A DNA stretch of 63,587 nucleotides, filler included, from 5 parts of 5 records of this genome joined end to end with filler, not necessarily neighbours in it; one strand, 5' to 3'; counted from the whole stretch's first letter, positions 10,205 to 40,038 are shown. Program-made: numbers and translations. Notes: a model not told the origin generated them from the letters alone.

Positions 10205-10351
10205 GCCCGGATCAACATTGAGATAGGGGTCGAGTTTGCGCAGCCGCACCCGGTAACCACGGGCCTGCAACAACGCACCAAGGGCGGCCGAGGCAATGCC
10301 TTTACCAAGCGAGGAGACCACGCCGCCAGTTATGAAAACATATCGCGCCAT
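10205..10351 (-). CDS. pyrG: CTP synthase, N-terminal fragment
   Basis: [18 protein letters not shown]...[11 protein letters not shown]. Confidence 0.97.
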
Positions 10352-20176: not shown

Positions 20177-20671
20177 ATGGCTGACGAGAGCGCTCCGCGC
20201 CTGACCCATCTGGCCGAAGACGGCTCGGCTGCGATGGTCGATGTCGGCGACAAGGCCGATACCGTGCGCGTTGCCGAGGCCGTCGGCCATGTGCGGATGA
20301 ATCCTGAAACTCTTGCGCTGATCATTGCAGGCAACATGAAGAAGGGCGACGTCATCGGGGCAGCTCGCATTGCCGGGATCATGGCTGCCAAGCAGACCGC
20401 CAACCTCATTCCGCTGTGCCATCCGCTGGCGCTGACCAAGGTCAGTGTCGAGATCGAGCCGGACGAGGCTTTGCCCGGCTTGCGGGTTCATGCGATGGCA
20501 AAGCTGACCGGAAAGACCGGCGTCGAGATGGAAGCACTGACCGCCGTTTCGGTCACGTGCCTGACGATTTACGACATGGCCAAGGCGGTGGACCGGGGCA
20601 TGGAAATCGACGGCATCAAGGTGCTTGCCAAATCCGGCGGCAAATCCGGCGACTGGAAACTCGACACCTGA
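20177..20671 (+). CDS. moaC: Cyclic pyranopterin monophosphate synthase
   Basis: [29 protein letters not shown]. Confidence 0.97.
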
Positions 20672-20682
20672 AGGAACGACTG

Positions 20683-21894
20683 ATGGCACTGATGCCGGTA
20701 GACGAGGCTCTTGGGCGCATACTCGAAGGTGCTGCACCCGCCACCGAGCCCGAAATGCTGCCGCTGGCACAGACCTACGGCCGCGTGCTGGCGCGCGATC
20801 TGCTGGCGCTCAGAACCCATCCGCCCTTCGCCGCGTCCGCAATGGACGGCTATGCCGTGCGCGCGGGCGAAGCCACAGTCGGCGCCAGGCTGAAACTGCA
20901 GGGCGAAGCCGCCGCCGGTCATGCCTTTGACGGACCGCTGGCAGCCGGGTCGACCATCCGCATCTTTACCGGCGCACCGGTGCCCGAAGGTGCTGACGCG
21001 ATCCTGATCCAGGAAAATGCCGAAAAGCTCGATGACGGCCTGGTGCTGGTCAACGAGGCGCCGGAAGCCGGCCGCTACATTCGCCCCGCAGGCGTTGATT
21101 TTACCGAAGGCAAGACCGGGCTCGCCAAAGGCCGCTTCCTCGATCCCGGCGCCATCACCTTCGCCGCCGCCATGAGCCATGCCGAGCTGCCGGTGGTGCG
21201 TAAGCCGCGGGTTGCCATTCTCGCCACCGGCGACGAGTTGCGCCTGCCCGGCCAGACGCTGGGGCCGGGCCAGATCATAGCCTCGAACACCTTTGGCGTG
21301 GCAGCGCTTGCCAAGGCTGCAGGCGCTGACGTGATTGATCTTGGTATCGCCATTGACCGGATGGAAGCGCTCGACGAGGCGCTCGATACGGCCGTTGCGC
21401 ACGAGGCGGATGTGCTGGTCACCATTGGCGGGGCGTCGGTCGGGGACCATGACCTGGTGCAAAAGGCTCTGACCGGTCGTGGAATGGGGCTCGACTTCTG
21501 GAAGATCGCCATGCGTCCGGGTAAACCGCTGATGTCGGGCAAGCTTGGTGGTATGCGGGTGCTGGGCCTTCCCGGAAACCCGGCCTCGAGCCTGGTCTGC
21601 GCGCACCTGTTTCTCGAACCGCTGGTAACACGGCTTGCCGGTCTGCCTGACCCGAACCGCATCCAGACCGCCATACTGGCCAAAGACTTGCCGGAAAACG
21701 ACCTGCGCCAGGACTATCTGCGCGGGGATCTTGAAACCAACGCCGAAGGCCAACGTGTCGCTACCCCGTCGCCACGGCAGGATTCATCACTGATGAAGGT
21801 CTTCGCCGACGCCCGTTGCCTGATCATAAGGCCACCCTTTGCACCGCCGGCCAAGGCCGGCACAATGTGTGATGTGCTGGTGTTGCGGGCCTGA
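20683..21894 (+). CDS. moeA: Molybdopterin molybdotransferase (gephyrin-like)
   Basis: SAMDGYA, RIFTGAP, TGDEL, MRPGKP, GLPGNP; start at MALMPV. Confidence 0.96.
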   Translation: MALMPVDEALGRILEGAAPATEPEMLPLAQTYGRVLARDLLALRTHPPFAASAMDGYAVRAGEATVGARLKLQGEAAAGHAFDGPLAAGSTIRIFTGAPVPEGADAILIQENAEKLDDGLVLVNEAPEAGRYIRPAGVDFTEGKTGLAKGRFLDPGAITFAAAMSHAELPVVRKPRVAILATGDELRLPGQTLGPGQIIASNTFGVAALAKAAGADVIDLGIAIDRMEALDEALDTAVAHEADVLVTIGGASVGDHDLVQKALTGRGMGLDFWKIAMRPGKPLMSGKLGGMRVLGLPGNPASSLVCAHLFLEPLVTRLAGLPDPNRIQTAILAKDLPENDLRQDYLRGDLETNAEGQRVATPSPRQDSSLMKVFADARCLIIRPPFAPPAKAGTMCDVLVLRA

Positions 21895-21961: not shown

Positions 21962-22672
21962 TCAACCGGTGACAGGCTCCCAGTCACCCTGGTTGCTCTT
22001 GCACCATTTCTGCTTGCCTGCGTCAGCCGTTCCGCCGTCCATATCGATGAGCAATTCAGTGAAGCGACAGGCCGTGTAATCGGAATTGAGCTCTTCAGCA
22101 TAAGATGCGACGGCTGTCGCCGAGCTCTGTGGCGTCGCTGGTGTGGTGGTTGACTGCGCCACTGCAGTCTGCGCCGGCTTTTCAGCCTTGACCGTGGGCA
22201 ATGGCGCTGGCGTTACCTTGGTTCTCACGGTGGCGCTCTTGCCATTTTTGGTCGTAATGCTGCGGATTTGAGGCTTGTTTGCCTGCAAAGCCGCCAGCTC
22301 GGCCTCCCGCACTTTCGCACGGTCTTCGGCGGCTGCAATTTCGACCAGGATGGCGCAACGCCCGACTCCGGCCACCGCACCAATGGCGGCGCCCTGCCCC
22401 ATTCCGCGGCTGCCGCCAAGAACGCCGCCGATGATCGCGCCTGAAATCGCTCCGATGGCAACACTGGCTACACAGTCGGACACCGCCTTGTCCATCGCTG
22501 TTGAACTGGCTTTCGTTCCGTTGGCCGTGGTCGTTGCACACCCCTGAACAACAACGCCGCACATCACAATGGCGGCAATCGACGACCGGCCCAGATTTCT
22601 GCTCGCATACTCCACAACAGCCCCCAACTTCACGACATCTGTCGATACTATTGCGAGAACAAAATAAGGCAA
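21962..22672 (-). CDS. Putative lipoprotein with glycine zipper and 17-kDa surface-antigen-like C-terminus
   Basis: Lipobox-like VQG-C; GAIxGAIIGG...GAAIGAVAG zipper; C-terminal CR...WC...GDW. Real start possibly GTG at 22615. Confidence 0.7.
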   Translation of the reverse strand: MPYFVLAIVSTDVVKLGAVVEYASRNLGRSSIAAIVMCGVVVQGCATTTANGTKASSTAMDKAVSDCVASVAIGAISGAIIGGVLGGSRGMGQGAAIGAVAGVGRCAILVEIAAAEDRAKVREAELAALQANKPQIRSITTKNGKSATVRTKVTPAPLPTVKAEKPAQTAVAQSTTTPATPQSSATAVASYAEELNSDYTACRFTELLIDMDGGTADAGKQKWCKSNQGDWEPVTG

Positions 22673-22810
22673 TACAATTTTCGATCAGAGCCGTGAGGTT
22701 TTTGAGACGAGTCCTGTCGCTCTTTTTCACTCAAAATTCCGGCTTCACATGCGCAGTAATTTCAGCATATCCATTCCGGATCATTTGCAGTCACCCGTAT
22801 GCGATCTGGC

Positions 22811-23647
22811 TCAGATCAAGATCACTCTCATATTGGTCGAACCAACACCTATGATGTCGCCATTTTTCAAGACAACGGGCGATTTTGCACTCACGGCCTT
22901 GTCGTTGATCCGTGTACCGTTTGTCGACGGCTTGTCCTTGCCTGCGCCGTCGATGAGATAATACAGGTCGCCCTGCCTGCGGATTTGACAGTGCACACCT
23001 GAGATATTCGCATCCTTGCCAAGCACCAGATCCACGCCCGGCTTGCGTCCAATCACATATACCCCCTTGGTCTTGAAGCGCTGGCTTTGCCGCAAGGTGG
23101 CGGTCTGTCCGACATGAGGACCGCTGTTGATCTGCAGGACCGCCTCTCCCCGTGTGACACCACTGACCGGTGTGACTTCACCTCTAGTTTCGACTTCCGG
23201 CAAAGTCTCGCGTTTCTGGTTTGTCGCACGGGTCACGGCTGCGACCCTGCCGGCCCAATCCGAATGCAGACAACCCGAAGCATGCTTGTTGTAGGCCGGA
23301 AGCGCATTGATGTTGAGGGATGGCAATCCACCGCCATTTGCCAACACCATCAAGAAGCGCTTGAAGCGTGCCGCCACGCCTGGCGCAGCCCCAGTCCTCT
23401 CCTCGACAATCCTGATCCCGCTGCACAACCGTCCAACCGATACGCCGCGCGCGAAGATTTCCACCACCAGGAAATGCACCAGCAAGACGACAGGTATGGC
23501 AACGATGTAGATCCATTGCGGCACGTTGGGGATGTGCCGCTCGATCAGTTTATGGATAATTACCACCAGCAACGTGACAACCAGAACATCCACGGCAAAC
23601 GCCGCAATCGACAGCCTTGCAATGGCACGTTCGTTCGCTTCTTTCAT
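22811..23647 (-). CDS. RDD-like membrane domain + FHA domain protein
   Basis: AFAVD and GVSVGRLCSGIRIV RDD-like pattern; FHA residues GR, SGVH, STNGT. Confidence 0.82.
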   Translation of the reverse strand: MKEANERAIARLSIAAFAVDVLVVTLLVVIIHKLIERHIPNVPQWIYIVAIPVVLLVHFLVVEIFARGVSVGRLCSGIRIVEERTGAAPGVAARFKRFLMVLANGGGLPSLNINALPAYNKHASGCLHSDWAGRVAAVTRATNQKRETLPEVETRGEVTPVSGVTRGEAVLQINSGPHVGQTATLRQSQRFKTKGVYVIGRKPGVDLVLGKDANISGVHCQIRRQGDLYYLIDGAGKDKPSTNGTRINDKAVSAKSPVVLKNGDIIGVGSTNMRVILI

Positions 23648-24297
23648 CCTGACAACCCCGTAAGTTGCTGCAGGATCACAAGGGCTGTCGCAACCATCGC
23701 AAAGTTCATCAGCAACCCGGCCCGCACAGCAATGACCTCCGGATCGGGCTCAAGCGTCAGGCGGAAATTGGTCTTGGCGAGAAAGATTCCGAAGGTGACG
23801 CCAACGATGGAAAACAGCAGGACAATGACAGGCGCCCGGCTGATATCAGGTTGGAATATCCATTCGATGCAGGCCGCCATGAATAGAGCGCCAAATGCCG
23901 TCACGAGATGAGCGAGCAGCTTACGCAGCTCGTTGTTGACCGATGTCAACCAGATGCCGACCAGCGAGATTGTCCAGGCGATTGATCCGGCAATGATCAT
24001 GAAGGCGATGACGCGTGCCGGGAAAACCGACAGGAGTTCGGATCCGGATGAACCGCGATAGGAGGATGCACTGTCCTTCTGGAAAAACTCGTAAATTGTA
24101 ATGAACGTCGTAAAGAGTGCCAGCCCGCCACCAATTGCAGTAACCGGCTTTCTGTATGCCTCCTCTAAATGGCCTTTAAACTCATAGCCGAAATTGGCAA
24201 ATACGCTCCCCCTGCCCAGATCGGGAATGAATGACTGCGATTTTGGCTTTGAACGGGAGGACGTCGCCTGCCGCCCGCCGCGCCTGTTTCTGTTCAT
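23644..24297 (-). CDS. Hypothetical integral membrane protein (about 5 TM)
   Basis: Basic N-terminus followed by hydrophobic segments; 4-nt overlap with the RDD-FHA gene. Confidence 0.7.
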   Translation of the reverse strand: MNRNRRGGRQATSSRSKPKSQSFIPDLGRGSVFANFGYEFKGHLEEAYRKPVTAIGGGLALFTTFITIYEFFQKDSASSYRGSSGSELLSVFPARVIAFMIIAGSIAWTISLVGIWLTSVNNELRKLLAHLVTAFGALFMAACIEWIFQPDISRAPVIVLLFSIVGVTFGIFLAKTNFRLTLEPDPEVIAVRAGLLMNFAMVATALVILQQLTGLSG

Positions 24298-24345
24298 GTC
24301 TTCCGTCTCATATTCAAATCCGAACCTCGTTGACCGGCCTTCCGG

Positions 24346-26067
24346 TCAATAGCACTGCATGCTGGCGGAACCATCAGGCGTATTCAGATTGACCGAACAC
24401 TGCTCACTGTTGCTGGCAATTTCAAAAGACCCTTCACGCTTCAAATCCTTCCAATCATTTGCAGCCTTGGCTTCCTGAATGGCGACATAGCTGAAATTAT
24501 AATCGCCCTGAATGCAGGATCCCGTGAAGTAGGCGGTCGAATCGCCATTATCCATCATGATCGTGCCTTCCGGCGGCAGGACGTTGAGATGGCTTATGGG
24601 ATCATCGCCATTGGGAAACTGGAAGGACACGTAGATGCTTTGACGGCAAGTCTTGCCGGCTCCGCCGTCATCAAAACCCGACAGGCTGTTGTCAGCCACA
24701 CCGGGCGTTTCGCTTGCGCTCACCCGGATCGTACCATCCTCGGCCGCGGCAACCTGTTGAGGTTGAGTATTCTCGGGCGCCTGCAGGGTGGCCTCAGCAG
24801 TTTTTGAAGACGGCTCCGGCGCGGAAGTCTTCTCAGGGGCATTGAGCACAATCCGGCCATCGGATCCTGCCTTTGCAGCAGACCCAGGTGCGGGCACCAG
24901 ATCGGCAGAAGCCACTTCAGGCGCACTCTTGGCACCACCGGCAATCAGGATCGGCGGCTGCTCGGCGCCCGTCAACTTGGAGAGCATCGAAACCTTGCCT
25001 TGAGCTTGGTGCAGCCAGGCGGACGCCTCACCCGCCGAGGCGAAATCATCACGCGTGTTCAGCGTAACCGGCCCGGCTCCCGGAGCGGTGTCATTGTAGG
25101 TGATCCGTACCCACTGATCGGAGAGGTCATGTGGCTTGATATCGAAATCGGCCATGCTTGCAACAATCTTGCGAGCTTCTCCGCCGCCGGCAGGCATCAC
25201 CTCGATTGCCACCAGCCCGTCCGGCTGCAATTGCGCTGCAGTGACGGCGCTCAGCCCACCAACCATAAGGAAATCCTTGGCAAACAGGTCAAACTGAGAC
25301 TGCGCGAGCCGATAATCCGGAATGGCGACTATTGCGGGGGTGGTGGCGGGTGCGGAAACTCTCTGCGGGCTAACCTTGACCGGCGACCCGAACCTCTCGT
25401 CGATGCTGTCCAGCGCCGCTTCGCGGACATAACCCTCTTCCGACGCGCGGGTGAACAGCAAGTAGCGTTGCTCTGCAGTCAGATATCCGGTTTCCGGTTC
25501 GCCAAGGGTGCGCTGAAACTGCTTGACCGCTGAACGGCTGCCCGCTCCGAAATCTCCATCAATCTTCTTTTTGTAAAGCCCGAGGTTTGCCAGCGCGCGC
25601 TGGATATCCTTGATATCCTCCTTGACCTTCGTCGCAACCGCGCTTCGCTTCTCGTCGCTCACGCTGCGCCCGGGTGCCAGAACGATTCGCTGCTTGTAGC
25701 AACGGGTGCAAGCCGACCAGGCCATTTCGTCGCCGTATTTGCGCGCCATATCCTCCTTGAAAACCACCGGCGCGGCAATCAGCGCGACCCCGATGATGGC
25801 GGCGGCAGGCGAATCGCCGGCGATTCCGCCAACCAGAAGACCGACCCCGACCCCCTGAATGATGCGCTTACCGGCGCCGTTCTTGTTGAGTGATTTTGTT
25901 GCCTTGCCGAAGTCCTTGCGGATTTGCTTGCCCATTTTCTTGAAATCAAGGGCTTGAGTGGTATCGGGCACGACAACAGCGGAACTGACCGACATCGCCA
26001 TTGCCAATGCAAAGGTGGAAACGATAGCCCCTGAACGCTTTCCTCTGGTTACCATTATACCCTCCAT
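24346..26067 (-). CDS. Exported peptidoglycan-binding (PG_binding_1) protein
   Basis: Signal peptide ending TQA-L; glycine-zipper-like stretch; IQRALANLGLY...DGDFGAGSRSAVKQFQ...TG domain; Cys-containing C-terminal domain. Confidence 0.8.
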   Translation of the reverse strand: MEGIMVTRGKRSGAIVSTFALAMAMSVSSAVVVPDTTQALDFKKMGKQIRKDFGKATKSLNKNGAGKRIIQGVGVGLLVGGIAGDSPAAAIIGVALIAAPVVFKEDMARKYGDEMAWSACTRCYKQRIVLAPGRSVSDEKRSAVATKVKEDIKDIQRALANLGLYKKKIDGDFGAGSRSAVKQFQRTLGEPETGYLTAEQRYLLFTRASEEGYVREAALDSIDERFGSPVKVSPQRVSAPATTPAIVAIPDYRLAQSQFDLFAKDFLMVGGLSAVTAAQLQPDGLVAIEVMPAGGGEARKIVASMADFDIKPHDLSDQWVRITYNDTAPGAGPVTLNTRDDFASAGEASAWLHQAQGKVSMLSKLTGAEQPPILIAGGAKSAPEVASADLVPAPGSAAKAGSDGRIVLNAPEKTSAPEPSSKTAEATLQAPENTQPQQVAAAEDGTIRVSASETPGVADNSLSGFDDGGAGKTCRQSIYVSFQFPNGDDPISHLNVLPPEGTIMMDNGDSTAYFTGSCIQGDYNFSYVAIQEAKAANDWKDLKREGSFEIASNSEQCSVNLNTPDGSASMQCY

Positions 26068-26116
26068 TCAAGTTTGCCGCACCACGCCGGGTTGCGTTGC
26101 CTTCATTTGACCATAA

Positions 26117-27802
26117 TCAGGATTGCAAAGATATTCTAAGTTCCGTACGCCCGAAAGATAATAATTTGGCATTCCTGACCTGGACCGGTACGGACCCGAC
26201 CTGCTCGTGATCGACGAAGGTTCCATTCGAGGAACCAAGGTCAATGATCGAGAGCTCTCCGTGACGATCCATTCCGATCTGCGCATGGCGGCGGGATACG
26301 GAGTCATCATCGATCACGATATCGCTGTCGGCACTGCGGCCGATCGTGCAGATCACATTGAGATCCGTGTTCCGCGCCGGACCTGCTTCAGCGACAGCAT
26401 GCTGGATTGTCGTTCCCCTCAGATCAAAGCCCGAGAGCAACCATGTCCGCTTGCCTGCTACCCTCCCGGGCCGACTGGCCTGGCCACGCTCCACCGACAA
26501 CTCGGCATTGCCAAGATGCAGCACAGAGCCGGGATGCAGGAACTGCCCCTGGGTGCGGGTGACCACCGCACCATCCAGACGAGTGCCATTGGTCGAACCG
26601 TCATCATGCACGACCAGATCATCGCCGTGATACCGAATGCGCGCGTGACTGCGAGATACCGACGGATCATCGATGACGACAGTGGCGTCGCCGCCCCGCC
26701 GGCCAAGCACCAAGCCAGTGCCGCGGAGTTCGGCGTCAAACTGGGCCAGGGAATGGATCCGGCCGCCGGCCACATCATGAAGCTGGATATCGGCGGCGGG
26801 CGGCGCGAGCGGCGTCTCGGCGATCTCGAGCCGGGTGCCTATATCGGGCGGAAGCGTCCCCTCCTCAAGGCCTGCCGTGCCCTTGCGCCAGTAGTATCCC
26901 GCGAAAAGAACCGACATGAAGGCCAGTGCCATGGACGATCCGATGCCGGTAAGTTCATAGACATCGAGCCCGCCGCGGCAACGCCCCGGCGTCACAGAAA
27001 CCCGAATTTCCTTTTCCTTCAACCCGAGCAGGACCTCGCGGACATGAACCGCGAATTCCAGGTCTCCGGGATCGTCGATGGTCAGTTGCCCGGCGTTGAC
27101 GAGGGCATTGTATATATCGTGCGCGCCAACGGTCGAACGCGTTCCCAGCGTGTTGACGCCGACAACACGGTTGCAGGTATCAAACAGCGGACCGCCCGAA
27201 TTGCCGCGGTTGATGTTTGCGCTATGCTGAATTGTCAGGCGCTGGACCGTGGGCACCAGGCGCTGGATCGTTCCGCTGGACACTGTCGGATCGAGAAGGG
27301 TCTGGTCACGCGTCGCCGGGTCGAAGACACCGCGCTCCAATCCCTTTGCAACCCGATCAGCGATCGCCGGAAATCCGATCGCGGTGACACTCTCCGTCTT
27401 GCTCAGCTCGACTGTGCCGATATCCGCCAGTTCCACGGCCTTGCCAGGCAGTGGCTGCTTTGTCTGCAGGATGGCTAGATCCTTGTCCGAATTGTACCAA
27501 AGCACCCGCGCATCGATAAAGCTGGCCTGACCTTCCTCCATGAAGGCTACCCGTATGCGCTCAGCACCTTCGATGACATGGTGGTTGGTGACCACGATTC
27601 CAGGTTCGGCAACCTTGAAGCCGGAGCCATGCCCCACGCCGTCAGCAGAGGAAACGATTATGCGGTAAACGCCGTCTTCAATGTCTTTCCTGGCCAGAGA
27701 CCAAAAGAGTGTGACCAACGCCAATATCGTGAACACCAGAGTCGCGACCAGAAAGGTGTTGCGACCACTTCTTCTCAATATGTCCTTGACTGCAATAGCC
27801 AA
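26117..27802 (-). CDS. Membrane-anchored trypsin-like serine protease with two C-terminal FHA domains
   Basis: Triad TNHHV / DKDLA / GNSGGP between two TM segments; two FHA domains with GR, SRxH and SxNGT. Start placed at TTG 27802 after GGAGGGG; ORF track starts at 27862. Confidence 0.9.
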   Translation of the reverse strand: MAIAVKDILRRSGRNTFLVATLVFTILALVTLFWSLARKDIEDGVYRIIVSSADGVGHGSGFKVAEPGIVVTNHHVIEGAERIRVAFMEEGQASFIDARVLWYNSDKDLAILQTKQPLPGKAVELADIGTVELSKTESVTAIGFPAIADRVAKGLERGVFDPATRDQTLLDPTVSSGTIQRLVPTVQRLTIQHSANINRGNSGGPLFDTCNRVVGVNTLGTRSTVGAHDIYNALVNAGQLTIDDPGDLEFAVHVREVLLGLKEKEIRVSVTPGRCRGGLDVYELTGIGSSMALAFMSVLFAGYYWRKGTAGLEEGTLPPDIGTRLEIAETPLAPPAADIQLHDVAGGRIHSLAQFDAELRGTGLVLGRRGGDATVVIDDPSVSRSHARIRYHGDDLVVHDDGSTNGTRLDGAVVTRTQGQFLHPGSVLHLGNAELSVERGQASRPGRVAGKRTWLLSGFDLRGTTIQHAVAEAGPARNTDLNVICTIGRSADSDIVIDDDSVSRRHAQIGMDRHGELSIIDLGSSNGTFVDHEQVGSVPVQVRNAKLLSFGRTELRISLQS

Positions 27803-28013
27803 TTGCCCCTCCGGCCTCACGCCACAATGCCTCACACTGCTATGATTGCCGATGGCGTGCAATGCACAATCCTGATCTTTTCACTACCTCGGCGGGTATT
27901 TTTCGCTTATTCCTCAGGTCCTATTGCAATTGCCGGTAGGATCGATTTGTATTGCCACTGCGGGGCGCAGGCCGCACTTGGGCATGGGGCACAATGAGCA
28001 AAACACTATCAAG

Positions 28014-30323
28014 ATGAGTAACAGGCACGCTCTTGAGCCCGGTACCATGCTGCGTCAGTACAGGATTGATTCTGTTGTCGGACAGGGCGGTTTCGGGATT
28101 ACCTATCTCGCCTTCGATACCGACCTTCAGCGCCGGGTGGCGATCAAGGAGTGCTATCCGCGCGATTTCGTTTCGCGCGAGGGCACGACGGTTGTTCCCA
28201 CCGGATCAAGCCAGACCAAGGATTTCCAGTGGGCGCTCGGCAAGTTCGTTGATGAAGCCACGACACTGGCGCGCTTCAAACACCCAGGAATCGTGCAGGT
28301 TCTGCAGATTATCAAGGATGAGAACGAGAGCGCCTACATGGTGCTCGAGTTTGTCGAGGGCCAGTCGTTTGACCAGTGGTTGAAGTCAAGGACCGGCCCG
28401 CCGGACGAAGAAAGCCTGAAGTCGGTGATCGCACCGCTTCTGGACGCGCTCGAAGTGGTCCATGACAACAATATCGCGCATCGCGACATTGCGCCCGACA
28501 ACATCTACATCCGCCATGACGGCACCGCCGTGCTGCTTGATTTCGGAGCGGCCAAGCAGACCCTGGTCCAGCAGAGCCGAACGCTGAACCTGGTGGTCAA
28601 GGATGGCTATTCCGCGCCTGAGCAGTATTACGCGGAAGGCCGCCAAGGCCCCTGGACCGACGTTTACGCCTTTGCCGCCACCTTGTACCGGGCTATTGCC
28701 GGCAAGCGGCCGATCGATGCAATGGCGCGGCTCGATGCTCTTAACAATGATGAGCCGGATCCGCTTGAGCCTCTGAGCAAACTGGCGCCCAGCGGCTACA
28801 CCAGCGGCTTTCTGTCGGCAATCTCGGAGGGGATGGCGCCGCAGACAAAGGCGCGGCCGCAATCGGTAAAGGCGTGGCGCTCTTCCATCCTGGGAACCGG
28901 ACCGGCTTCATCTATTTCCGACGCGGCGATTGACAAGACACGGGTTCAGCGGTTCGACCCCAGCAATTCCGGTGGCAGAAAAGATCCGGCAAAGAAGAAA
29001 TCGCGAAGTGCTGCGACCATACTTGCAGGCCTCGCTCTGGTCTGCGCAGCCGGAGTTGGCGCCTATCTGTTCTTCCAGCACTCGGCAGCCCAAGCTGAAA
29101 AACGGGCCTGGGACGACGCTGCGTCTGAAGACACCGTGGCGGCATACCAGGGCTTCATATCTAACCACCCTGCTTCCGAATTGATGTCTTCGGCGCAATT
29201 GGCGATCAGGGCCTTGAACAGCCCCTGGACTAAGGTGATTGACCTCGCCGCCAGTGAAAGAGCCAATGACGTCGCCATCACCGGCAAAGCGATCGTCATT
29301 GCCGGCGGTACCGTTGCAAGCGGTTCCACCGAGATGAAGGGTCTGGTTCAATCGGTCAGCCTAAGCGGAAGGCAGAACTGGCGGACCAGCTACGGCGGAG
29401 CCGGGTCGCATATTTTTGAAGGCATCCATGCGGCGCCTGACGGGGACTTCGTGGCGGTCGGCAACAGCCGGGAAACCGGTTCAGCCGGCCAGAAGGGGCT
29501 GGTTGTCCGGTATGACGCGAACGGCGCAGAGAAATGGGCCAAGCTGGTCGGTGACGGCGGCGACAATGGCCTGATGGACGCGTTGGTGAAACCCGACGGC
29601 AGCGTGGTCGCGGTCGGATGGGCGAAAAGCCCGAGCGGGTCCGGAACCGACGGCTGGGTGGCCACACTCAATCCGTTCGGTGACCTGATGAACGCACGGT
29701 TCCTCGGTGGGCCGGGCAACGACCGGTTCGACAGCGTCGCGCTGATGCCCGATGGCACACTGGCGATGGTTGGCCAGCAGCAACGCGAAGGTGCACAGGA
29801 CGCCAATTTCTGGCTGGTCAAGCTCGCAGCCGACGGCAATGTGATTCTTGACCGGGCCCCGGGCGGGCGGAACACGGACAGTTTTGGCGCAGTGGCGGCG
29901 ACCCGAGACGGGCAATTGGTGGTGGTCGGCCAGACCGACAGTTTCGGATCGAACACATTTGACGGCATGATCATGCGCGTAACCGCCGACAACAAGACAC
30001 CACCCAAGGTACTTGCCGAGGCCCGCGACGACTATCTGACCGGTGTGGCGCTTTCCCCGGACGACAGCGTGGTGGTGGCCGGCTACACCTCTTCCCGCGG
30101 CGCAGGCCAGACCGATGGCTGGGTGATCAAGTACAACAAGAACCTGGATACCATTCGGTGGGAACGCGTGCTCGGCGGCAAGGGATGGGATACCATCGAA
30201 AATGTGGCTGTTCTTCCGGATGGCTCTACCATCCTTGTCGGCGCAAGGGGCAAGGAAGGATCGGGCGGATCGGATCTTTGGATCATGAGGCTTGGCCCGG
30301 ACGGACAATATGACGGAAGTTAA
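28014..30323 (+). CDS. Hanks-type Ser/Thr protein kinase with TM segment and C-terminal beta-propeller
   Basis: GQGGFG, VAIKE, HRDIAPDN, DFG, APE motifs; TM AATILAGLALVCAAGVGAYLFF; about seven ~50-aa repeats (DG..vvvG...D.w...G). Start uncertain (27924, 27984 or 28014). Confidence 0.93.
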   Translation: MSNRHALEPGTMLRQYRIDSVVGQGGFGITYLAFDTDLQRRVAIKECYPRDFVSREGTTVVPTGSSQTKDFQWALGKFVDEATTLARFKHPGIVQVLQIIKDENESAYMVLEFVEGQSFDQWLKSRTGPPDEESLKSVIAPLLDALEVVHDNNIAHRDIAPDNIYIRHDGTAVLLDFGAAKQTLVQQSRTLNLVVKDGYSAPEQYYAEGRQGPWTDVYAFAATLYRAIAGKRPIDAMARLDALNNDEPDPLEPLSKLAPSGYTSGFLSAISEGMAPQTKARPQSVKAWRSSILGTGPASSISDAAIDKTRVQRFDPSNSGGRKDPAKKKSRSAATILAGLALVCAAGVGAYLFFQHSAAQAEKRAWDDAASEDTVAAYQGFISNHPASELMSSAQLAIRALNSPWTKVIDLAASERANDVAITGKAIVIAGGTVASGSTEMKGLVQSVSLSGRQNWRTSYGGAGSHIFEGIHAAPDGDFVAVGNSRETGSAGQKGLVVRYDANGAEKWAKLVGDGGDNGLMDALVKPDGSVVAVGWAKSPSGSGTDGWVATLNPFGDLMNARFLGGPGNDRFDSVALMPDGTLAMVGQQQREGAQDANFWLVKLAADGNVILDRAPGGRNTDSFGAVAATRDGQLVVVGQTDSFGSNTFDGMIMRVTADNKTPPKVLAEARDDYLTGVALSPDDSVVVAGYTSSRGAGQTDGWVIKYNKNLDTIRWERVLGGKGWDTIENVAVLPDGSTILVGARGKEGSGGSDLWIMRLGPDGQYDGS

Positions 30324-30332
30324 CTGCGAAGA

Positions 30333-31916
30333 TTGGGGGCCGGCATGGCTTTAGCAACAGAATTGGCCGGGGACGGTTCGCCGCAAAAACTGCATCTTTG
30401 GCGTGCGTTACGCCGGCAAGGCAGATCATTCGGCGCGGCCCTCGCCTTCATGGTGGCTGCACCGCTGCTCGGGCTTGGCGCGAGTGCGCACGGCACCGAG
30501 TTGTTGATGGACTGCGCTGAAGACAAGGTCGCGCAGAGCGCCACGGTGGCTTGCGACTTCCGCTTTACCGAGCCGCAACAGCTCGAGGAGCTGACACTTT
30601 CGGCCAACGGGCAGGCAATCGTGGGCTCCACCTTCAGTCCCTATCCAGGAACCGGCGAGAAATCCGCCTGGCTCTACCTGATCGACCGGTCAAATCCGAG
30701 CCGGGCCGCGACCGTCAAACGCAATATCGACATTGCGGGTCAGCAGTTGCAGGCAGCTTCGGGATCACGTCTCATCGGACTGGCGACCTTTGCCAATGAT
30801 ATTGAACTGGTGCTTGAGCCCGCCTCGCGGCACCCCAATCTCGATGCCACGCTGGGGACCATCAAGGCGGATGGTTCGGCGACCGAGTTGTTCGCCAACT
30901 CGCTCAAGGCGATCGACATTCTCAAGAATGTATCCGCTGACCGGAAAGCCCTGGTGATCATGTCGGACGGCAAGGCCGAAGACACTGCCTATACCCGGCA
31001 GGACGTGGTCGATGCGGCGCGATCTGCAGGCGTCATTATTATTGGCCTCGGGTTTGCGGAGAGCAATTCCGAAACCCCGGCCCTGCAGGAGTTGCGCCGT
31101 CTTGCCGAGGAGACCGGCGGCTATTTCGATGCCGTTGTCGGCAGCCAGACCTTTGCGTCGGACTTTGCCGGCAGATTGCCCCGATATCTTGAAAATGGCG
31201 GCCATATCCGCGGAACCGTGGGCGATGTGTCCGGTGACGTCGCCATCGAGCTCTCCGCCAAGGTGGCTGGCGGCGCCAGCTATGACGCGACGCAGACGGT
31301 GGCTGTCGAAGCCGCTCCGGTGCCCGAACCGCCCAAGCCGCTCTCCACTGTGGCTTCCATTTACGCCTCGATGCTGGGTGAAGCCAGTGACACGGTGACA
31401 TGGGCGGACAACAACCAGTTCCTCGCCTGGCTGTTGCTGGCCATCCTGCCGGTTCTGATTCTCGCTGGCTTGGGTTTCTGGCTCAGCAAGAAAAACCGCG
31501 ATATGGCGGATGCGTTCGAAGAGGTCGATCTCAGCGATTCAGAAACGCTTTCGACCATCCGGACAGATGCACTGGACGGCGATTTCGAGGACGGTGCGAC
31601 CAGGTTTGTCTCGGCCGCAGACACGGAGTCTTTCGGCTATTTCGAAATCGTCGGCAATGAAGACAGCCCCTTCCCCATCACGGCGCATTCGATCTCGATC
31701 GGCCGCCATTCCGACAACGATTTTGTGCTGAGCAATGATTCGGTTCACCGTCATCACGCCCATTTCCATATTTCGCCAGACGGAGTCCCGACGATCAATG
31801 ATCTCGACACCACCAACGGAGTGATGGTCAATGGCAGCCGGGTGGACCGGGCCGATCTGCAGAGCGGGGACTTGATCGAACTGGGTGAAGTCCGACTGAG
31901 ATTCGTTGCCGGATAA
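30333..31916 (+). CDS. VWA domain + TM + FHA domain protein
   Basis: N-terminal signal/anchor; LIDRSNPS, ATELF and IMSDG MIDAS-like residues; TM; FHA with GR, HRHH, TTNGV. Confidence 0.88.
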   Translation: MGAGMALATELAGDGSPQKLHLWRALRRQGRSFGAALAFMVAAPLLGLGASAHGTELLMDCAEDKVAQSATVACDFRFTEPQQLEELTLSANGQAIVGSTFSPYPGTGEKSAWLYLIDRSNPSRAATVKRNIDIAGQQLQAASGSRLIGLATFANDIELVLEPASRHPNLDATLGTIKADGSATELFANSLKAIDILKNVSADRKALVIMSDGKAEDTAYTRQDVVDAARSAGVIIIGLGFAESNSETPALQELRRLAEETGGYFDAVVGSQTFASDFAGRLPRYLENGGHIRGTVGDVSGDVAIELSAKVAGGASYDATQTVAVEAAPVPEPPKPLSTVASIYASMLGEASDTVTWADNNQFLAWLLLAILPVLILAGLGFWLSKKNRDMADAFEEVDLSDSETLSTIRTDALDGDFEDGATRFVSAADTESFGYFEIVGNEDSPFPITAHSISIGRHSDNDFVLSNDSVHRHHAHFHISPDGVPTINDLDTTNGVMVNGSRVDRADLQSGDLIELGEVRLRFVAG

Positions 31917-31973
31917 AATATCAAGCAGTTGCAGGGGGCTGACAGCCTCGTAGCGCTCTGAGGAGAGACCGAA

Positions 31974-32519
31974 ATGAACGATGACAACAAGACACGCATC
32001 CTGCGGCCCCAACCACCAACTGGTGCCGGGAATGACGAGACCCACAGCATAAGGTCCTCCGGCTCCCATGCCGGACATGACGTGGAGGCCGAGGACGAGC
32101 CGCGCACCCGCGTCATTTCCAGCCGCAGCCCGAAGCGCAGTGAGGAAACCAGCGATGATGGCGGCTATGAACTCGCGGCTGGCTGGCTGGTCGTCATCGA
32201 GGGACCCGGACGCGGCTGTACGCGCGAAATCTATTACGGCATGAACAGCGTCGGCCGCGGATCTGAAGAACGCATTGCGCTTGATTTCGGCGATACAACG
32301 ATCTCGCGGGAGGCCCACGCCTATCTCGTCTTCGACGAAAAGCAATCGGACTTCTACCTCCAGCATGGCGGTAAATCCAATCTGGTGCGGCTCAACGGCG
32401 CGCCGGTGCTTGCACCGCAGCCGCTCAAGAACGGCGACACCATTGAAATCGGTGACACGAAACTGCGCTTCGTGCCGCTTTGCGGCGATGACTTCACCTG
32501 GGAGGCGGTCAATCCTTGA
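31974..32519 (+). CDS. Stand-alone FHA domain protein with disordered N-terminal tail
   Basis: GWLVVIEGPGRG, SVGRG, ISREAH, LKNGDTIEIG, FVPLCG..FTW; GAGGAG RBS. Confidence 0.9.
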   Translation: MNDDNKTRILRPQPPTGAGNDETHSIRSSGSHAGHDVEAEDEPRTRVISSRSPKRSEETSDDGGYELAAGWLVVIEGPGRGCTREIYYGMNSVGRGSEERIALDFGDTTISREAHAYLVFDEKQSDFYLQHGGKSNLVRLNGAPVLAPQPLKNGDTIEIGDTKLRFVPLCGDDFTWEAVNP

Positions 32520-33334
32520 CCTGCGACATGCTTGATTTCGCTGGTGCACAGATTGCGGGAAAGCGCGCCTATCAGGAGGATGCATTCGCCTTTCGCGAGC
32601 TCAAGGGAAAAGACGAGAGCCTGATTTGTCTGCTCGCGGACGGCATGGGCGGACATGCCGCCGGCGATGTGGCCGCAAACACATCAATCGAAGCTTTCAG
32701 CCAGGCGATCGAATGGCAATCACGGCCGCTGCATGAGCAGTTCATCCGCGCCCTGGACAAGGCGAACCGGGCCATTTACCGCAAGGCCAAGGACGATTCG
32801 ACCAAGGCCGGAATGGGGTGCACCTTTGTTGCCGTCGAAGTCGCAAACGGCCTCTGCAACTGGATAAGCATCGGCGATTCCCCGTTGTTTCACATTTCCG
32901 GAAGCAAAATCCGGCGGATCAATGCAGATCATTCCATGGCACAGCAGCTCGATGCAGCCGCCGCCCGCGGAGAAATCACCGTTGAGGAGGCCCGCAACAG
33001 CTCGTCGCGCAACATTCTGCTCTCCGCCCTGACGGGCGACCCGATATCGCGGGTGGACCAGTCAAAAACCGCGCATCCGCTCGTCAAGGGCGACTGGGTC
33101 ATCCTCGCCAGCGACGGGCTGGAAACGCTCGAACCCGATGAGATGCTTTCCCTGGTTCGTAACAATCCCGGCGCTTCGGCCAAACAGATGTGCGTATTGC
33201 TGCTCGATGCCGTTGAAGCGCGCGACAAGCCCTCGCAGGACAACGCTACCGTCATGGCCGTGCGGGTGCTGGAGAGACCGGCCGATGGGTCGCCGGATGA
33301 TGAAGTGATCACGCGACCGATTCGGGCGGGATGA
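32516..33334 (+). CDS. PP2C/PPM family Ser/Thr phosphatase
   Basis: RAYQED, ADGMGGH, IGDS, ASDGL and QDNAT metal-binding motifs; overlaps the FHA gene stop. Confidence 0.93.
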   Translation: MTCDMLDFAGAQIAGKRAYQEDAFAFRELKGKDESLICLLADGMGGHAAGDVAANTSIEAFSQAIEWQSRPLHEQFIRALDKANRAIYRKAKDDSTKAGMGCTFVAVEVANGLCNWISIGDSPLFHISGSKIRRINADHSMAQQLDAAAARGEITVEEARNSSSRNILLSALTGDPISRVDQSKTAHPLVKGDWVILASDGLETLEPDEMLSLVRNNPGASAKQMCVLLLDAVEARDKPSQDNATVMAVRVLERPADGSPDDEVITRPIRAG

Positions 33335-33757
33335 ATCCTTTATTGAACTGACTGGCATGACTTCGCTCCACAGCAGCGCTGGCGCCCTGCGCTATGACGA
33401 AGACTTGAAGCCTATACAATTTGGCAAACAGGTCACTGTTTCAGCCGTGGCCCTTCGTTCGCCAGCCCTGCCTTTCGTTGTCGCAGCGAGCATCGCAATT
33501 GAGTGCGCTCTGGTCCCGTTTATGTTTCGCGCCTCTAATGTTGTGGCTGTCATATAACATCGGGAATGGTCACATTTATCCGGGGATTATCCGGGATTTC
33601 GCGGTTGCGGCTCTCAGTGATCCCGAGGCGTTTGCAAGCCCTTCATATCGCCCGTTGGAGGACCTCAGGAATCCGGTGGCGATCGCTCAGGCCGATGGAA
33701 CCATGATCGCATCGATCTTTATACCCCTGACAACGGCCGGCTTTACCTTGCCCCCCG

Positions 33758-33860: not shown

Positions 33861-33960
33861 NNNNNNNNNNNNNNNNNNNNNNNNNNNNNNNNNNNNNNNN
33901 NNNNTTAATTAATTAANNNNNNNNNNNNNNNNNNNNNNNNNNNNNNNNNNNNNNNNNNNN
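33861..33960. other. Artificial contig linker
   Basis: 44 N + TTAATTAATTAA + 44 N. Confidence 0.99.
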
Positions 33961-33970
33961 TGTTGTGTGC

Positions 33971-33990
33971 GTGTGTGTGTGTGTGTGTGT
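33971..33990. repeat. (GT)10 microsatellite at contig start
   Basis: Direct reading. Confidence 0.9.
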
Positions 33991-34064
33991 TTTGGGCGTG
34001 TTTCGTGTCGTCGTGGGTGGAAGAAACAAAGAAAGCAAGAAAACACAAGGCATCGAGCACAGCT

Positions 34065-37000
34065 ATGGAGAAAAAGCATGGCTTTGGCAAGCGCCGGCGT
34101 GCGGTCATTAATCGGAACAGCAAGCCAAAGCCTATCGCGAGACAGCAAGATGCGCCATCGAAAATGGGGGTGGCACTGCGCTCGGCAGGTAGGGCCTTGT
34201 TGAAGCGGGCAAGTGCCATTGCAGAGGAGGCAAAAAATGAGGAAGACGGTGGCGGCCCTGCCAATAATGGCGTCCCAGATATTGCCAGTGTTGCGGAAAA
34301 AGCCTTGAAGCTGCTGTCGAAGCACCAAACCGACGCGGATGTGTGGCGCGATCACACTAGCAAAGTCTACGACGGGCATGAAGGGCGGGACCAATACTGG
34401 ACTATGTTCCGCACTGGCCGCCGGATGGAGTACGGCAAGCGTGCTCACAAACCACGGGACTCTGCTGACCTGGACGCAATGCTGAATGGAGAGGACATGG
34501 AAGACAACAATGCTGAAGATGCCCCGCTGTCCCCTCGAAGTGCCTACTTGAAGAAGATGGAAGAGTTCAATCTGCGTCCGGAACGAATTCAATTCGACAA
34601 GGAGAAGACGGAACTCGCGATCCACAGTTACGGCCTTGGTGACAAGCGCATCGAGGCACTGGCAATGTCACTATCTCATTTCCCGTACGAGTTGGTGAAC
34701 TTGAGCAATAACCGAATGACTGCGACGGGGTTGGAGCATGTGGTCCGCAATCTTAGTGATGGGTGCTTTTCGCTGGATGTGTCTCAAAACAACTTGGGCG
34801 CGGACGGCGCACAGCACGTTGTATCATACATCCTGCAGCCTGGTCCTTTGTGTGTGCAGCACGAGCTCATGACTCTCAACCTGGCTTCGTGCAAATTGGG
34901 GAACGCAGGCGCCGAAGCTCTTGGAGAGGGACTTTCTTCTGCGAATAAGTTTCTGAAGCGGCTGACCGTCTCCAACAACGATATTGAAGAGGAGGCATGC
35001 ATGAAGTTGGTGATGGGCTTGATGAATTGCGAAGTTCTGGAAGAGCTCGATATTAGCTGGAACAACATCGACCTTGCTGCTGCGGCTCTGATCCGCCAGC
35101 TGAAAACCTTGCAGTGGCTCGACTTGTCAAGCAACTCGCTAGGAAGCCAGTCGGCCCAAGATCAGACGGCGGGCTTTTTGGCATCAGAGCAGGCATCTGA
35201 TGGTTCTGGTGGTTCTCTGGCCATGATTACTCGGATTGGCAATGCGATCCTCGAGAATGAGACCCTGATTCATCTTAGTCTCAGCAACAACCAGTTCGAC
35301 ATGCAGCAACTTCAGGTGCTGTCCAAGTTGTTGGAGGGAAACCACACGCTGATTGGACTGCATCTTTCTCATGCGAATGCGCGAGTAGACGCCCACGGAT
35401 TTTTGCGCGTAACAGGCGGCGGGGGCGTCCCCGACGACAACGATGGGGAAAATGCGGACAATGGGGCTGACCAAGAGGCGTCTATTCTCGGGACTGATGG
35501 TTCCGCCCATGGAAGCCACACCAGTGCTAGCGTTCATGGTACACGAGAAGCAGGAGACAAGTTGCGTCCATCAGAGTGGCTCAAAATGGCACCCATGCGA
35601 GAGAGACGCGAAGCTTTCAAATACAAAAGCTGCTGGATTTGCGGTGGCTATTCGGAGAAGCGCTTCAAGGTTGTCATTCAGAAAAATGCAGAAGGAAATT
35701 TGTCGAAGCGGGCCATCAACAATGGAGTGTACGTGCCTGAAAGTGTCTTGTTGCAAATGCTTAAGAGTGTGCCCAGGGTTGGGGTGCGCGTCCATCAACA
35801 CGGCATGGCCGTGCTGAAATGCCGTTGCAAGCGCCAATCATGCTGCTGAACTTTGTTTGTGATTGCCAGGTTCCTTCATCTGAGCATCGATGGGTTCAAA
35901 GGCGAGAAAATGGATGAGGTGAAAGATGGTAGCACCGAGACTGCAACCTACGCACTCAGCCGTATGGTTCCACCCGGGAAACTGTACGGCTTTTTTACTG
36001 TGGAGGAGGAAGCGCCTACAGCTTCGACTAGCGATGATCCTGATGATGATGGTGATGACAATGCGGAGACAAAGCAGGGCGGAAGTACTTCCCGCAAGAA
36101 GAGCTACACGTTTTTCACGGCGGAACAAGTTAAAACCCGAGCTTGGACTCGGTGGTCTCATAAAGCAGCGATCGTATCTGTTGGGCTTTCAGAAAATTTT
36201 GCTCCAGGAGGTGGCATTCCTCCTGAGGTGAATGTATGGGCAATATCAAAACAAGCCGAGCCTGTGGTGACCAAGATGTGCGCTCCACGTATTATCAATG
36301 GCAAAGACGGCCAGGTGTTTCGACCGAAAACGTGGTCACTGGCCAACAGTATCTTTTCGAAGCGTGCGCAAGAATCGGACTGCAACAGTTTCTTCAACAA
36401 GGGTCCATTCTTGCAGCGTATCCTGCGCACAGACTGGCGGTTTACAAAACTGGCACGATGGCTTCCGCAAAAGTATAAGCGGTCGAGCCTGAAAAACTAT
36501 TCCCAACTGTATCAATCTATTCAAGCTGCACTTGCGCCGCATGTCGGTGTTATGCTGCAGCTGTTCAAGTTCATTTGCGCGGTCAGCGCCACTGGCACGG
36601 AGGACGGGTTTACTTTCATGAAAAAACCATTGCTGACTGCTCTGCAAGCTTTTGAATTTGGTAAGAAGAATGAAGTGAAATGTCGTGGAGTGCACACGGT
36701 CAATGCTCGACCTGTCTCCAAATCAGATATCGACACTTTATTTACGGTTGTCAACCTCGAACTGGAATCTGGCGGTGACTCCAACGAGGCACAAGCTGTT
36801 GCTGCGATGAATGATGATAATCCTGACAATGCTCTCACGCGTTTTGAGTGGCTTGAGCTTATTGTTCGCCTTGCTGCAAAACGCTTTCAAACTGTGGCCC
36901 ATGAAGCAGTGAGTTTTCACATTGCAAGCTCTAGTGATGCCAACGCGGTTGTTGGCTTGTGTTCATACCACCCAGTCCGTAGTTGTACCTAACTTTTTTT

Positions 37001-39107: not shown

Positions 39108-39133
39108 CTTCTTCTTCTTCTTCTTCTTCTTCT
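39108..39133. repeat. (CTT)n microsatellite at contig end
   Basis: Direct reading; the assembly breaks inside it. Confidence 0.9.
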
Positions 39134-39233
39134 NNNNNNNNNNNNNNNNNNNNNNNNNNNNNNNNNNNNNNNNNNNNTTAATTAATTAANNNNNNNNNNN
39201 NNNNNNNNNNNNNNNNNNNNNNNNNNNNNNNNN
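39134..39233. other. Artificial contig linker
   Basis: 44 N + TTAATTAATTAA + 44 N. Confidence 0.99.
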
Positions 39234-39926: not shown

Positions 39927-40038
39927 GATTTGATCCCTCATTGAGTTAAGGCGATGACACGAGACTAGGGCCCATTGTGGCGCCCGCGCCCCGATCTTTG
40001 TACGCTAAAGGCCGGATGCCGTCAGCGGTTCGATGGGT

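Follow-up and report, generated by a model that had tools for sequence, protein, structure and literature searches.

A nine-gene cluster of kinase, phosphatase and FHA-domain proteins as a possible lineage variant of a widespread trans-envelope phospho-signaling operon

The DNA analyzed here is a stretch of 63,587 nucleotides (the window), and its subject of interest is a cluster of nine genes, g1 to g9, located at positions 21962-33334 and arranged in two divergent arms, with g1-g5 on the minus strand and g6-g9 on the plus strand. The cluster is not a chance neighborhood, because its gene set recurs in other genomes, and it holds all six components of a recurrent core, i.e. a VWA-transmembrane (TM)-FHA protein, a small FHA protein (with the GWLVV signature of its family), a PP2C phosphatase, a trypsin-TM-FHA protein, an RDD-FHA protein and a receptor-type Hanks kinase. 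On balance, and with moderate confidence, we favor reading the cluster as one lineage's variant of a widespread trans-envelope Ser/Thr phospho-signaling operon, whose role would be the surveillance of, or the response to, envelope damage or contact and whose output would be regulated periplasmic proteolysis. The features of the cluster are as follows:

g1, 21962-22672, minus strand: small exported protein; glycine zipper; lipobox-like VVQGC
g2, 22811-23647, minus strand: RDD and FHA domains (Pfam)
g3, 23644-24297, minus strand: multi-TM protein with no family match
g4, 24346-26067, minus strand: N-terminal hydrophobic segment and PG_binding_1 domain (Pfam)
g5, 26117-27862, minus strand: TM segment, Trypsin_2 domain, TM segment, FHA domain, FHA domain
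Intergenic region between the divergent arms, 27863-27923, no strand: limits taken from open reading frame coordinates; longer if g5 and g6 start internally
g6, 27924-30323, plus strand: Pkinase domain, one TM segment, delta-60 repeat propeller
g7, 30333-31916, plus strand: signal or TM segment, VWA domain, TM segment, FHA domain
g8, 31974-32519, plus strand: single FHA domain
g9, 32516-33334, plus strand: PP2C phosphatase

The divergent arms and their recurrent core

The open reading frame (ORF) calls, together with Pfam and NCBIfam searches that support the domain assignments, agreed with what an initial annotation of this DNA had seen, that is, nine genes in two divergent arms, a total of five FHA domains and a position directly after moeA (20416-21894); trpD, trpC and moaC lie upstream too, on the same contig piece (Pfam). 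The "several" 4-nt overlaps of that annotation came down to two gene pairs, g3/g2 (23644-23647) and g8/g9 (32516-32519). The kinase g6 matched Pkinase (E 1e-32) and the delta-60 repeat model TIGR02608 (92.5 bits against a cut-off of 76.5), its kinase motifs are intact (GQGGFG, VAIK, HRDIAPDN, DFG and SAPE) and a single TM segment is found at 366-384. It is predicted to be a Hanks Ser/Thr kinase of the receptor type, whose kinase domain is cytoplasmic and whose beta-propeller is extracytoplasmic. Its relatives retain the kinase domain while the ectodomain varies: across loci the C-terminal part is MORN, FGE-sulfatase (formylglycine-generating-enzyme-like), Sel1, DUF4384 or PPC, or there is none. 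The phosphatase g9 matched PP2C_2/SpoIIE in Pfam and a Stp1/IreP-type model (E 2e-41, under the equivalog cut-off), and the metal-binding motifs DGMGGH, GDS, SDG and DNAT are kept. The FGE-sulfatase domain recurs in the compared loci (given L numbers below) either as a kinase ectodomain or as a separate neighbor, at L124:2496-4927, L124:14119-16059, L200:11855-13828 and L001:13111-14790.

The membrane-bound FHA proteins are equally well preserved. In g5 (Pfam Trypsin_2, E 2e-22, and two FHA domains), an alignment of 18 sequences showed that the catalytic triad H95, D128 and S222 and the cysteines C230/C295 are invariant, and that both FHA domains keep the phosphothreonine-binding pattern GR...S..H...NG. 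The start of g5 is suggested by its homologues to lie 20 codons downstream of that of the listed ORF, at about 27802. Among 8000 candidates scored, 1230 were relatives of g5 at E<=1e-3 with the same architecture, and the taxa with names among such proteins were Rhizobiaceae, Ahrensia, Cohaesibacter, Breoghania, Hyphomicrobium and Akkermansiaceae. Hydropathy placed TM segments of g7 at 32-50 and 363-381, bracketing the VWA domain; in an alignment of 15 sequences its metal ion-dependent adhesion site was reduced to D118-x-S-x-P plus T184 and D212, C74 of the ectodomain was nearly invariant, and the GR/H/N residues of the FHA domain were intact. The third FHA-tethered membrane protein of the core is g2 (Pfam RDD, E 6e-8; FHA, E 2e-15), an RDD membrane domain followed by a C-terminal FHA domain that is predicted to be cytoplasmic.

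In hydropathy profiles, the protease and VWA domains are bracketed by TM segments and the kinase domain has one after it, and the conserved cysteines of the protease and VWA ectodomains fit an oxidizing compartment. Because of these hydrophobic segments and conserved cysteines, the protease, the VWA domain, the propeller and the Cys-rich C-terminus of g4 are predicted to lie outside the cytoplasm, and the kinase, the PP2C phosphatase and all FHA domains inside it; for the VWA domain, with its two flanking TM segments and conserved cysteine, the extracytoplasmic placement had already been predicted in the initial annotation. Furthermore, since catalytic and phosphothreonine-binding residues are intact, a writer/eraser/reader logic gains support.

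The core operon occurs in Tabrizicola (L001), in other genomes and on many metagenome contigs. Eight loci were collected around g5-like matches, namely L001, from a scan dominated by generic trypsin motifs, and L096-L102. VWA-FHA, small FHA, PP2C, trypsin-FHA and kinase genes stood together in five of the eight (L001, L096, L097, L099 and L101, the VWA gene of the last being cut by the contig end), and L098 and L100 held the protease alone. A metagenome scan with the g8 alignment gave at least 599 pattern matches, of which 359 were confirmed and the best 80 kept. Among the 23 g8-anchored loci of at least 7 kb, which include about five near-identical pairs that were not de-duplicated, PP2C was present in 20 (next to g8), the kinase in 19, trypsin in 17 and VWA in 15. 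A Pfam scan of 13 long loci revealed a fixed order, VWA-FHA, FHA, PP2C, trypsin-FHA, RDD/DUF805-FHA, kinase, in L124, L128, L148, L157, L167 and L170, where the position of g2 is taken by an RDD-FHA protein (L124, L148 and L170) or by a DUF805-FHA protein (L128, L157 and L167). All of these six loci have the full six-component set, as do L104 (RDD form), L096 and L001; a counterpart of g2 is present in L001, and L096 has a TIR-RDD-FHA fusion. The loci of the g8 family span a G+C content of 38-71%. Two side observations concern these loci. At L102:4808-11661, four tandem paralogous trypsin-TM-FHA genes are followed by a PP2C gene and stand beside genes for flagellar export and the flagellar rod. 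Next to the MORN-kinase form of the operon, at L148:1768-3835, L157:1207-2530 and L167:8698-9264, there are exported proteins or lipoproteins that are paralogous and have in common the C-terminal pattern C-x-[RK]-x-G-[LF]-x-[PV]-G-[TS]-x-x-[FY]-x-x-C, for which Pfam gave no match.

A close relative, L104, carries all nine genes in the same arrangement, with protein identities of 72-92% and a DNA identity of 84% over 21985-33335. The similarity ends exactly at the g9 stop; its left end, 21985, is only the edge of the fetched L104 stretch. After the cluster, L104 carries lexA, comEC, gltA, lpxB, lpxA and fabZ. Tabrizicola (L001) has counterparts for eight of the nine genes, including a g3-like gene and a Gly-zipper lipoprotein. 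Co-conservation of all nine genes, as the initial annotation envisaged it, thus extends to L104 and nearly to L001, but only six genes are broadly co-conserved; g1, g3 and g4 appear to be clade-specific, being found in Hoeflea-like relatives and partly in Tabrizicola.

The small FHA protein and the proposed circuit

The best conserved component is g8 (31-39% identity across the aligned relatives), whose FHA domain (Pfam, E 4e-9) occupies residues 92-160 and which has signatures of its own, GWLVV..GPG.G and FVPLC..F.W. Its family is large, counting 5308 representative clusters at E<=1e-3, 3886 at E<=1e-10 and 1308 at E<=1e-30. Upstream of the FHA domain there are two candidate phospho-acceptor motifs, T7 in KTRILRP and T45 in RTRVISS. 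A motif T-[RQKT]-hydrophobic-hydrophobic was found in the N-terminal tails of 61 of 69 relatives, with two or more copies in 35 of them, whereas shuffled tails contained it in 6.2 +/- 2.1 cases (maximum 14); the motif is usually followed by R and P/R, typical forms being TRIIRR, TRIYRP, TKIFRP and TQYIRS. Because of this excess over shuffles, we take g8 to be the likely substrate of the kinase and an adaptor hub. The idea that T-[RQK]-hydrophobic-hydrophobic is a system-wide feature was rejected, as the motif was present in none of the 17 g5 linkers and in only 2 of the 32 kinase juxtamembrane regions.

This build, a short N-terminal tail with threonine motifs followed by one FHA domain, is that of GarA and OdhI of Actinobacteria. 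The N-terminal motif of GarA is ETTSVFR, which is resembled by the g8 motif [DE]xTT[RQK]-hydrophobic-hydrophobic-R. GarA and OdhI are also the nearest solved structures (PDB 2kfu and 2kb3), although the similarity is very weak (E 5e-4, 23 bits). In contrast to them, g8 stays below the cut-offs of the OdhI and FhaB models, has its own GWLVV/FVPLC signatures, and has membrane proteins, not enzymes of the tricarboxylic acid cycle, as its genomic partners. In short, g8 shares the build of GarA/OdhI and fails on sequence membership, and we treat it as a protein that may work like GarA without being a member of the GarA family. GarA and OdhI are small FHA switches that are phosphorylated at an N-terminal threonine by PknB/PknG, in OdhI at Thr14 (PMC2784874).

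These findings led us to the following model. The kinase g6 would sense a periplasmic or cell-wall cue by means of its variable ectodomain, here a delta-60 beta-propeller, and would phosphorylate g8, the GarA-like adaptor, at T7 and T45, the threonines of its T-[RQK]-hydrophobic-hydrophobic-R motifs. The resulting phosphothreonines would be read by the cytoplasmic FHA domains of g7 (VWA), g5 (protease) and g2 (RDD) or, alternatively, by the FHA domain of g8 itself, which would amount to a GarA-type off-switch. Reading of phosphothreonine may assemble or release a membrane complex and in this way control two parts that would face the cell wall, the trypsin-like protease in the periplasm and the adhesin-like VWA domain. 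The peptidoglycan-binding g4, the Gly-zipper lipoprotein g1 and the membrane protein g3 would be clade-specific partners or substrates, and the PP2C phosphatase g9 would reset the system. Precedents for assembly by phosphothreonine-FHA contacts are provided by Rv1747/PknF (PMC8339232), ArnA/ArnB (PMC6509490) and Fha-TssL (PMC3953482).

Several points weigh against this model: (i) for every member of the family, the cue, the proteins on which kinase and protease would act and the resulting phenotype are putative; (ii) the resemblance of g8 to GarA/OdhI appears weak, as the g8 family profile had no match among PDB chains and g8 scored 27.3 bits against the OdhI model NF041660, whose cut-off is 200; (iii) g1, g3 and g4 belong to a small clade, and their membership in the system is argued from adjacency only; (iv) the contig ends 526 bp after g9, so the downstream context is lost here; (v) the TIR, caspase and SLATT-like accessories of L096, L097 and L099 fit a conflict role better than housekeeping surveillance; and (vi) in a sample of the phylum Pseudomonadota most g8-PP2C pairs are not accompanied by VWA and trypsin. 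In that sample, a g8-family gene was found (E<=1e-20) in 11 of 401 genomes (about 2.7%). In 13 genome loci searched with tblastn, PP2C was adjacent to g8 in 11 and a kinase was present in 8, while the VWA/trypsin type accounted for 3; the outputs included VWA and/or trypsin-FHA in L199, L200 and L206 and WD40 kinases in L197 and L198.

Since most g8-PP2C pairs of the phylum sample occur without VWA and trypsin, the triad of adaptor, PP2C phosphatase and kinase appears to be older and more general than the VWA/trypsin effector set. Because the effectors differ between loci, the triad can be regarded as a general cassette that is probably plugged into varying membrane-associated outputs, which fits the membrane and envelope theme of the cluster. 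A second conserved operon type, made up of a kinase, a g8-family FHA protein, a PP2C phosphatase, a GTPase-like protein and two dynamin-like proteins, was observed in L203, L205, L207 and L208 (about 7.3-16 kb each). Between clpP and clpX in L209, a Na+/H+ exchanger with a C-terminal FHA domain (8158-10340) adjoins a small g8-like FHA gene.

Known systems and competing explanations

Of the characterized systems, several share parts of this architecture. Multivalent phosphothreonine-FHA contacts are known to cluster Rv1747. This mycobacterial ATP-binding cassette transporter has two FHA domains and is phosphorylated by PknF (PMC8339232). Together with the FhaA/FhaB-PstP-PknA/B cell-wall locus, it resembles the cluster in having membrane proteins with cytoplasmic FHA domains, Hanks kinases and a PP2C reset; the cluster differs in that its effectors are a protease, a VWA and an RDD protein, not a transporter or cell-wall synthases, in that it belongs to a Gram-negative envelope, and in that no orthology extends past the domains. 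In Sulfolobus, ArnA (FHA) and ArnB (vWA) form a phosphorylation-dependent pair with the kinases ArnC/D and PP2A (PMC6509490, PMC12852372 and PMC7472852). The likeness lies in an FHA and vWA pair under the control of a kinase and a phosphatase; unlike the proteins studied here, those of the Arn system are archaeal and cytoplasmic, serve archaellum expression, lack a membrane tether and a protease, and employ another phosphatase family.

Other known systems join a vWA protein, a Hanks kinase and a PP2C phosphatase in one locus. Cytoplasmic triads of this kind are TerY-P and E. coli YegI/YegK/YegL, and in Deinococcus an FHA protein is added. Here, in contrast, the VWA domain of g7 does not answer to the soluble vWA that defines TerY-P/YegIKL, as it is placed between two TM segments (32-50 and 363-381), carries a conserved cysteine, has a predicted location outside the cytoplasm and is joined to an FHA domain at the C-terminus; moreover, the triads have neither a protease nor an RDD protein. 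The D. radiodurans operon DRA0331-0334 encodes vWA, kinase, FHA and PP2C proteins, of which the FHA protein is FraH-like and the PP2C protein carries KI-FHA (10.64898/2026.01.23.701218). As to g5, it shares with HtrA/DegP/DegS the trypsin fold and the His-Asp-Ser triad but has no PDZ match, its protease domain is followed by a TM segment and two FHA domains, and its Do-family score is 76.7 bits against 416.

The alternative that survives best is an anti-phage or anti-invader conflict system (abortive infection or programmed cell death), in which the kinase ectodomain would detect an envelope breach and the FHA-tethered effectors, i.e. the protease and the RDD protein, in relatives also a TIR NADase, a peptidoglycan-anchored caspase and a SLATT-like pore, would damage the cell or the invader. 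We regard it as possible, with the evidence tilting against it. L096:13664-19336 holds in a row a PG_binding-Peptidase_C14 (caspase) protein, a DUF4231/SLATT_1-like membrane protein, a TIR_2-RDD-FHA protein and a ParA-like ATPase, with an IS21 element upstream (2380-4649); L097 has a PG_binding-caspase protein and a TIR_2 protein, and L099 a PG_binding-caspase protein, these caspases standing in the role of g4. However, the TIR, SLATT and ParA genes of L096 could belong to a neighboring system, TIR or caspase domains were found in three of the eight g5-anchored loci and in none of the 13 metagenome and 12 genome loci scanned, and the version in the window has no TIR, caspase or SLATT domain. 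The same ambivalence is seen in comparisons with defense models: PADLOC TIR effector models recognize the TIR domain (E 1e-11), one PD-T4-6 model is matched at its C-terminus by the RDD part of the L124 RDD-FHA protein (E 5e-9) and the g6 kinase domain matches mad6 and PD-T4-6, yet in PADLOC-DB 2.0 the matches of the cluster are confined to single domains, the kinase domain and the protease domain (RT-protease and Avs1b), with none for g1-g4 and g7-g9 and no complete system called. High variability of the kinase ectodomains and a patchy distribution would also suit defense, g5 being rare in genome samples (1/401 for the class; 0/192, 1/4 and 6/401 for orders) and g8 occurring in 11/401, and L116 adjoins Pnkp/Hen1 RNA-repair genes; on the other hand, many loci sit among housekeeping genes. 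Aravind-group surveys of conflict systems, in the parts of their text available, mention FHA only sporadically (PMC7159879; 10.64898/2026.10.19.760177).

A related and rather improbable proposal is an immune-like switch, in which a phosphothreonine scaffold (g8 plus the five FHA domains) would join the tethered VWA domain and the trypsin-like protease in the periplasm, so that a breach made by a phage, a predator or a neighbor's weapon, once sensed by the diversifying kinase, would lead to proteolysis, or to death in the TIR/caspase/SLATT variants. Complement factor B is a VWA-serine-protease convertase, and by analogy the switch would be its "split" counterpart.

It is also conceivable, at a low probability, that only the right arm, g5 and g2 form a system, and that g1, g3 and g4 are unrelated neighbors kept by shared descent. 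Searches with g3 against Pfam, NCBIfam and PADLOC gave no matches. The five TM segments ascribed to it in the initial annotation correspond to about five hydrophobic segments in hydropathy, while an AlphaFold2 (AF2) model of low confidence (mean predicted local distance difference test score 59.6) has four TM helices, with helices at 87-213. In g4, which is taken to be an exported peptidoglycan-binding protein, Pfam and the AF2 model distinguish a PG_binding_1 domain (150-201), an alpha/beta module (about 247-368) and a Cys-rich beta-sandwich (about 473-573), and four cysteines are invariant in the family (C474, C518, C557 and C572). A Foldseek search with the g4 model found nothing at E<=1e-3, apart from weak PH-like rows for the middle module only, and a caspase-like domain was sought in g4 by AF2 modeling and Foldseek and not found. 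The homologues of g3 and g4 are few: 14 for g3, those with names being Hoeflea, and 25 for g4, 24 of them full-length, from Hoeflea, Lentilitoribacter, Cohaesibacter and Rhizobium sp. They seem confined to Hoeflea-like marine Rhizobiales, and tblastn of 80 metagenome loci (the best 80 of 359) detected g3 and g4 in L104 only, all of which would suit the smaller system. Eight g4/g5 homologue pairs probably lie on the same contig. The glycine zipper of g1 matched Pfam Gly-zipper_YMGG at E 1e-5 (25.6 bits, under the Pfam cut-off of 28.9), and its true start is probably internal to the listed ORF. What speaks against separating these genes from the rest is that the distant Tabrizicola (21-24% identity) has a g3-like gene immediately upstream of its RDD-FHA gene and also encodes a Gly-zipper lipoprotein (L001:3749-4567), that a g1-like lipoprotein lies inside the L124 operon (7653-8354; E 1.8e-5 in a small local search), that the core has PG_binding_1 proteins at its flanks in L096, L097 and L099, and that g3 and g2 overlap by 4 nt. 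We class g1 and g3, the latter a polytopic membrane protein, as clade-specific accessories.

Very unlikely is an accessory of a proton-motive-force motor, in which a MotA/ExbB/TolQ-like pentamer would drive the anchored VWA domain as a force transducer and phosphorylation would regulate it. Coupling of TM helix-tethered vWA domains to TolQ-like motors has been predicted, with close synteny to a tolQ/exbB-like gene and a trans-pore helix bearing a conserved Asp, or an SHLS motif, as features (PMC12204202), and a MotA_ExbB-like gene adjoins the g8 gene in L155 and L169. These are, however, two of 13 metagenome loci, and in the 12 genome loci there is only the ExbB-ExbD-TonB set of L198, about 5 kb from g8; unlike those transducers, g7 has no aspartate or other acidic residue in its TM segment and no MotA_ExbB gene accompanies it in the cluster, g3 having no MotA_ExbB match even at E<=5, and the sole MotA/ExbB gene of the window (5777-6547) is on another contig piece.

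The T6SS (type VI secretion system) deserves comparison because its threonine-phosphorylation pathway (PpkA/PppA/Fha1, the last also called TagH) likewise combines an FHA reader with a membrane-bound Hanks kinase, part of which is a periplasmic domain, and with the PP2C phosphatase that belongs to this kinase, and there, too, a phosphothreonine-FHA contact builds an envelope-spanning complex with a periplasmic VWA domain involved. PpkA itself carries the periplasmic VWA domain, whereas here it is found on a separate FHA protein, and the cluster further differs in its five FHA domains, three membrane proteins with FHA domains and periplasmic protease. In Agrobacterium, Fha binds phosphothreonine of TssL (PMC3953482). 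Our system is independent of T6SS. A search of the window's large ORFs and of all related loci scanned gave no T6SS Pfam family; rows named "Yop-YscD_cpl" reflect the FHA fold as such, and the sole export genes seen are the flagellar ones of L102. A VipB/TssC search of the carrier genomes G001, G642, G794, G706 and G662 was negative in all five, with a positive E. coli control. The initial annotation's statement that no T6SS core gene is present can be made, within the window, only for the piece 10205-33860, because the window consists of joined contigs; in the related loci scanned, homologous clusters do not stand beside T6SS core genes. An orphan pathway steering a T6SS encoded elsewhere is hardly credible: it can point to the three shared activities, to weak matches with the T6SS FHA model TIGR03354 (g5 62.4, g2 40 and g7 27 bits) and to the contig stopping soon past g9, but all these scores are below the cut-off of 120.25 bits, g8 has no match, the related loci gave no T6SS family and the five carriers no VipB/TssC match, and lexA, comEC and gltA are what comes after the cluster in L104.

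A description of the operon was not found in open-access PMC and bioRxiv full text, with subscription journals and supplements outside this scope, and the operon appears to be new in print. Nearest to it in that literature are the Deinococcus operon, the Aravind-group surveys, ArnA/ArnB and studies of Fha in T6SS. Taken together, the interpretation given in the initial annotation is partly supported. It was largely borne out for the architecture, the independence from T6SS and the lack of a published description of a system built in this way. The verdict is only partial because no more than six of the nine genes are broadly co-conserved, because intact residues and the conserved g8 motif back the writer/eraser/reader circuit while its trigger, the clustering and the output are what we infer, and because TIR, caspase and SLATT-like accessories in some relatives add weight to the defense option, which PADLOC matches at the level of domains only.

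Surroundings of the cluster and implications

The window is composed of at least five contig pieces, joined by N44-TTAATTAATTAA-N44 at 10105-10204, 33861-33960, 39134-39233 and 58022-58121, and gene order across these four joints carries no synteny information. The cluster and the trp and moa genes are on the piece 10205-33860, which stops 526 bp past g9. A scan of the divergent intergenic region (27863-27923) for promoters and terminators gave no signal above shuffles, and flanking direct repeats were looked for around the cluster and not found.

The piece 33961-39133 has a low G+C content (0.48-0.53) and opens with a run of (TG)n; its genes specify an LRR_6/RNI-like product (33963-35849) and one of 379 aa without a family (35853-36992). 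Beside the alphaproteobacterial pieces it appears foreign and is possibly eukaryote-like or a binning contaminant. At 39234-39941 (minus strand) there is an N-terminal fragment of DnaK (residues about 8-241), with mitochondrial Hsp70 and DnaK as the best PDB matches. Its reading as a pseudogene was rejected, since the contig end cuts the gene, and so was the idea that this HSP70 fragment and the low-G+C LRR region form an island adjoining the cluster, as both are on other contigs. On a further piece, MotA/ExbB-like, MotB/OmpA-like and response-regulator-pentapeptide-repeat genes stand in a row (5777-9082), unrelated to the cluster as far as seen.

Hanks-type kinase signaling of Gram-negative bacteria is understood in few cases, chiefly in the control of T6SS. 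The operon family described here is large, and its fixed syntax ties cytoplasmic phosphothreonine reading to periplasmic enzymes. Its parts lend themselves to testing, as there are one kinase, one phosphatase, one adaptor with two candidate threonine sites and three FHA-tethered outputs. If the model is true, the family would represent a general bacterial route by which events at the envelope are linked either to regulated proteolysis in the periplasm or to effectors of cell death.

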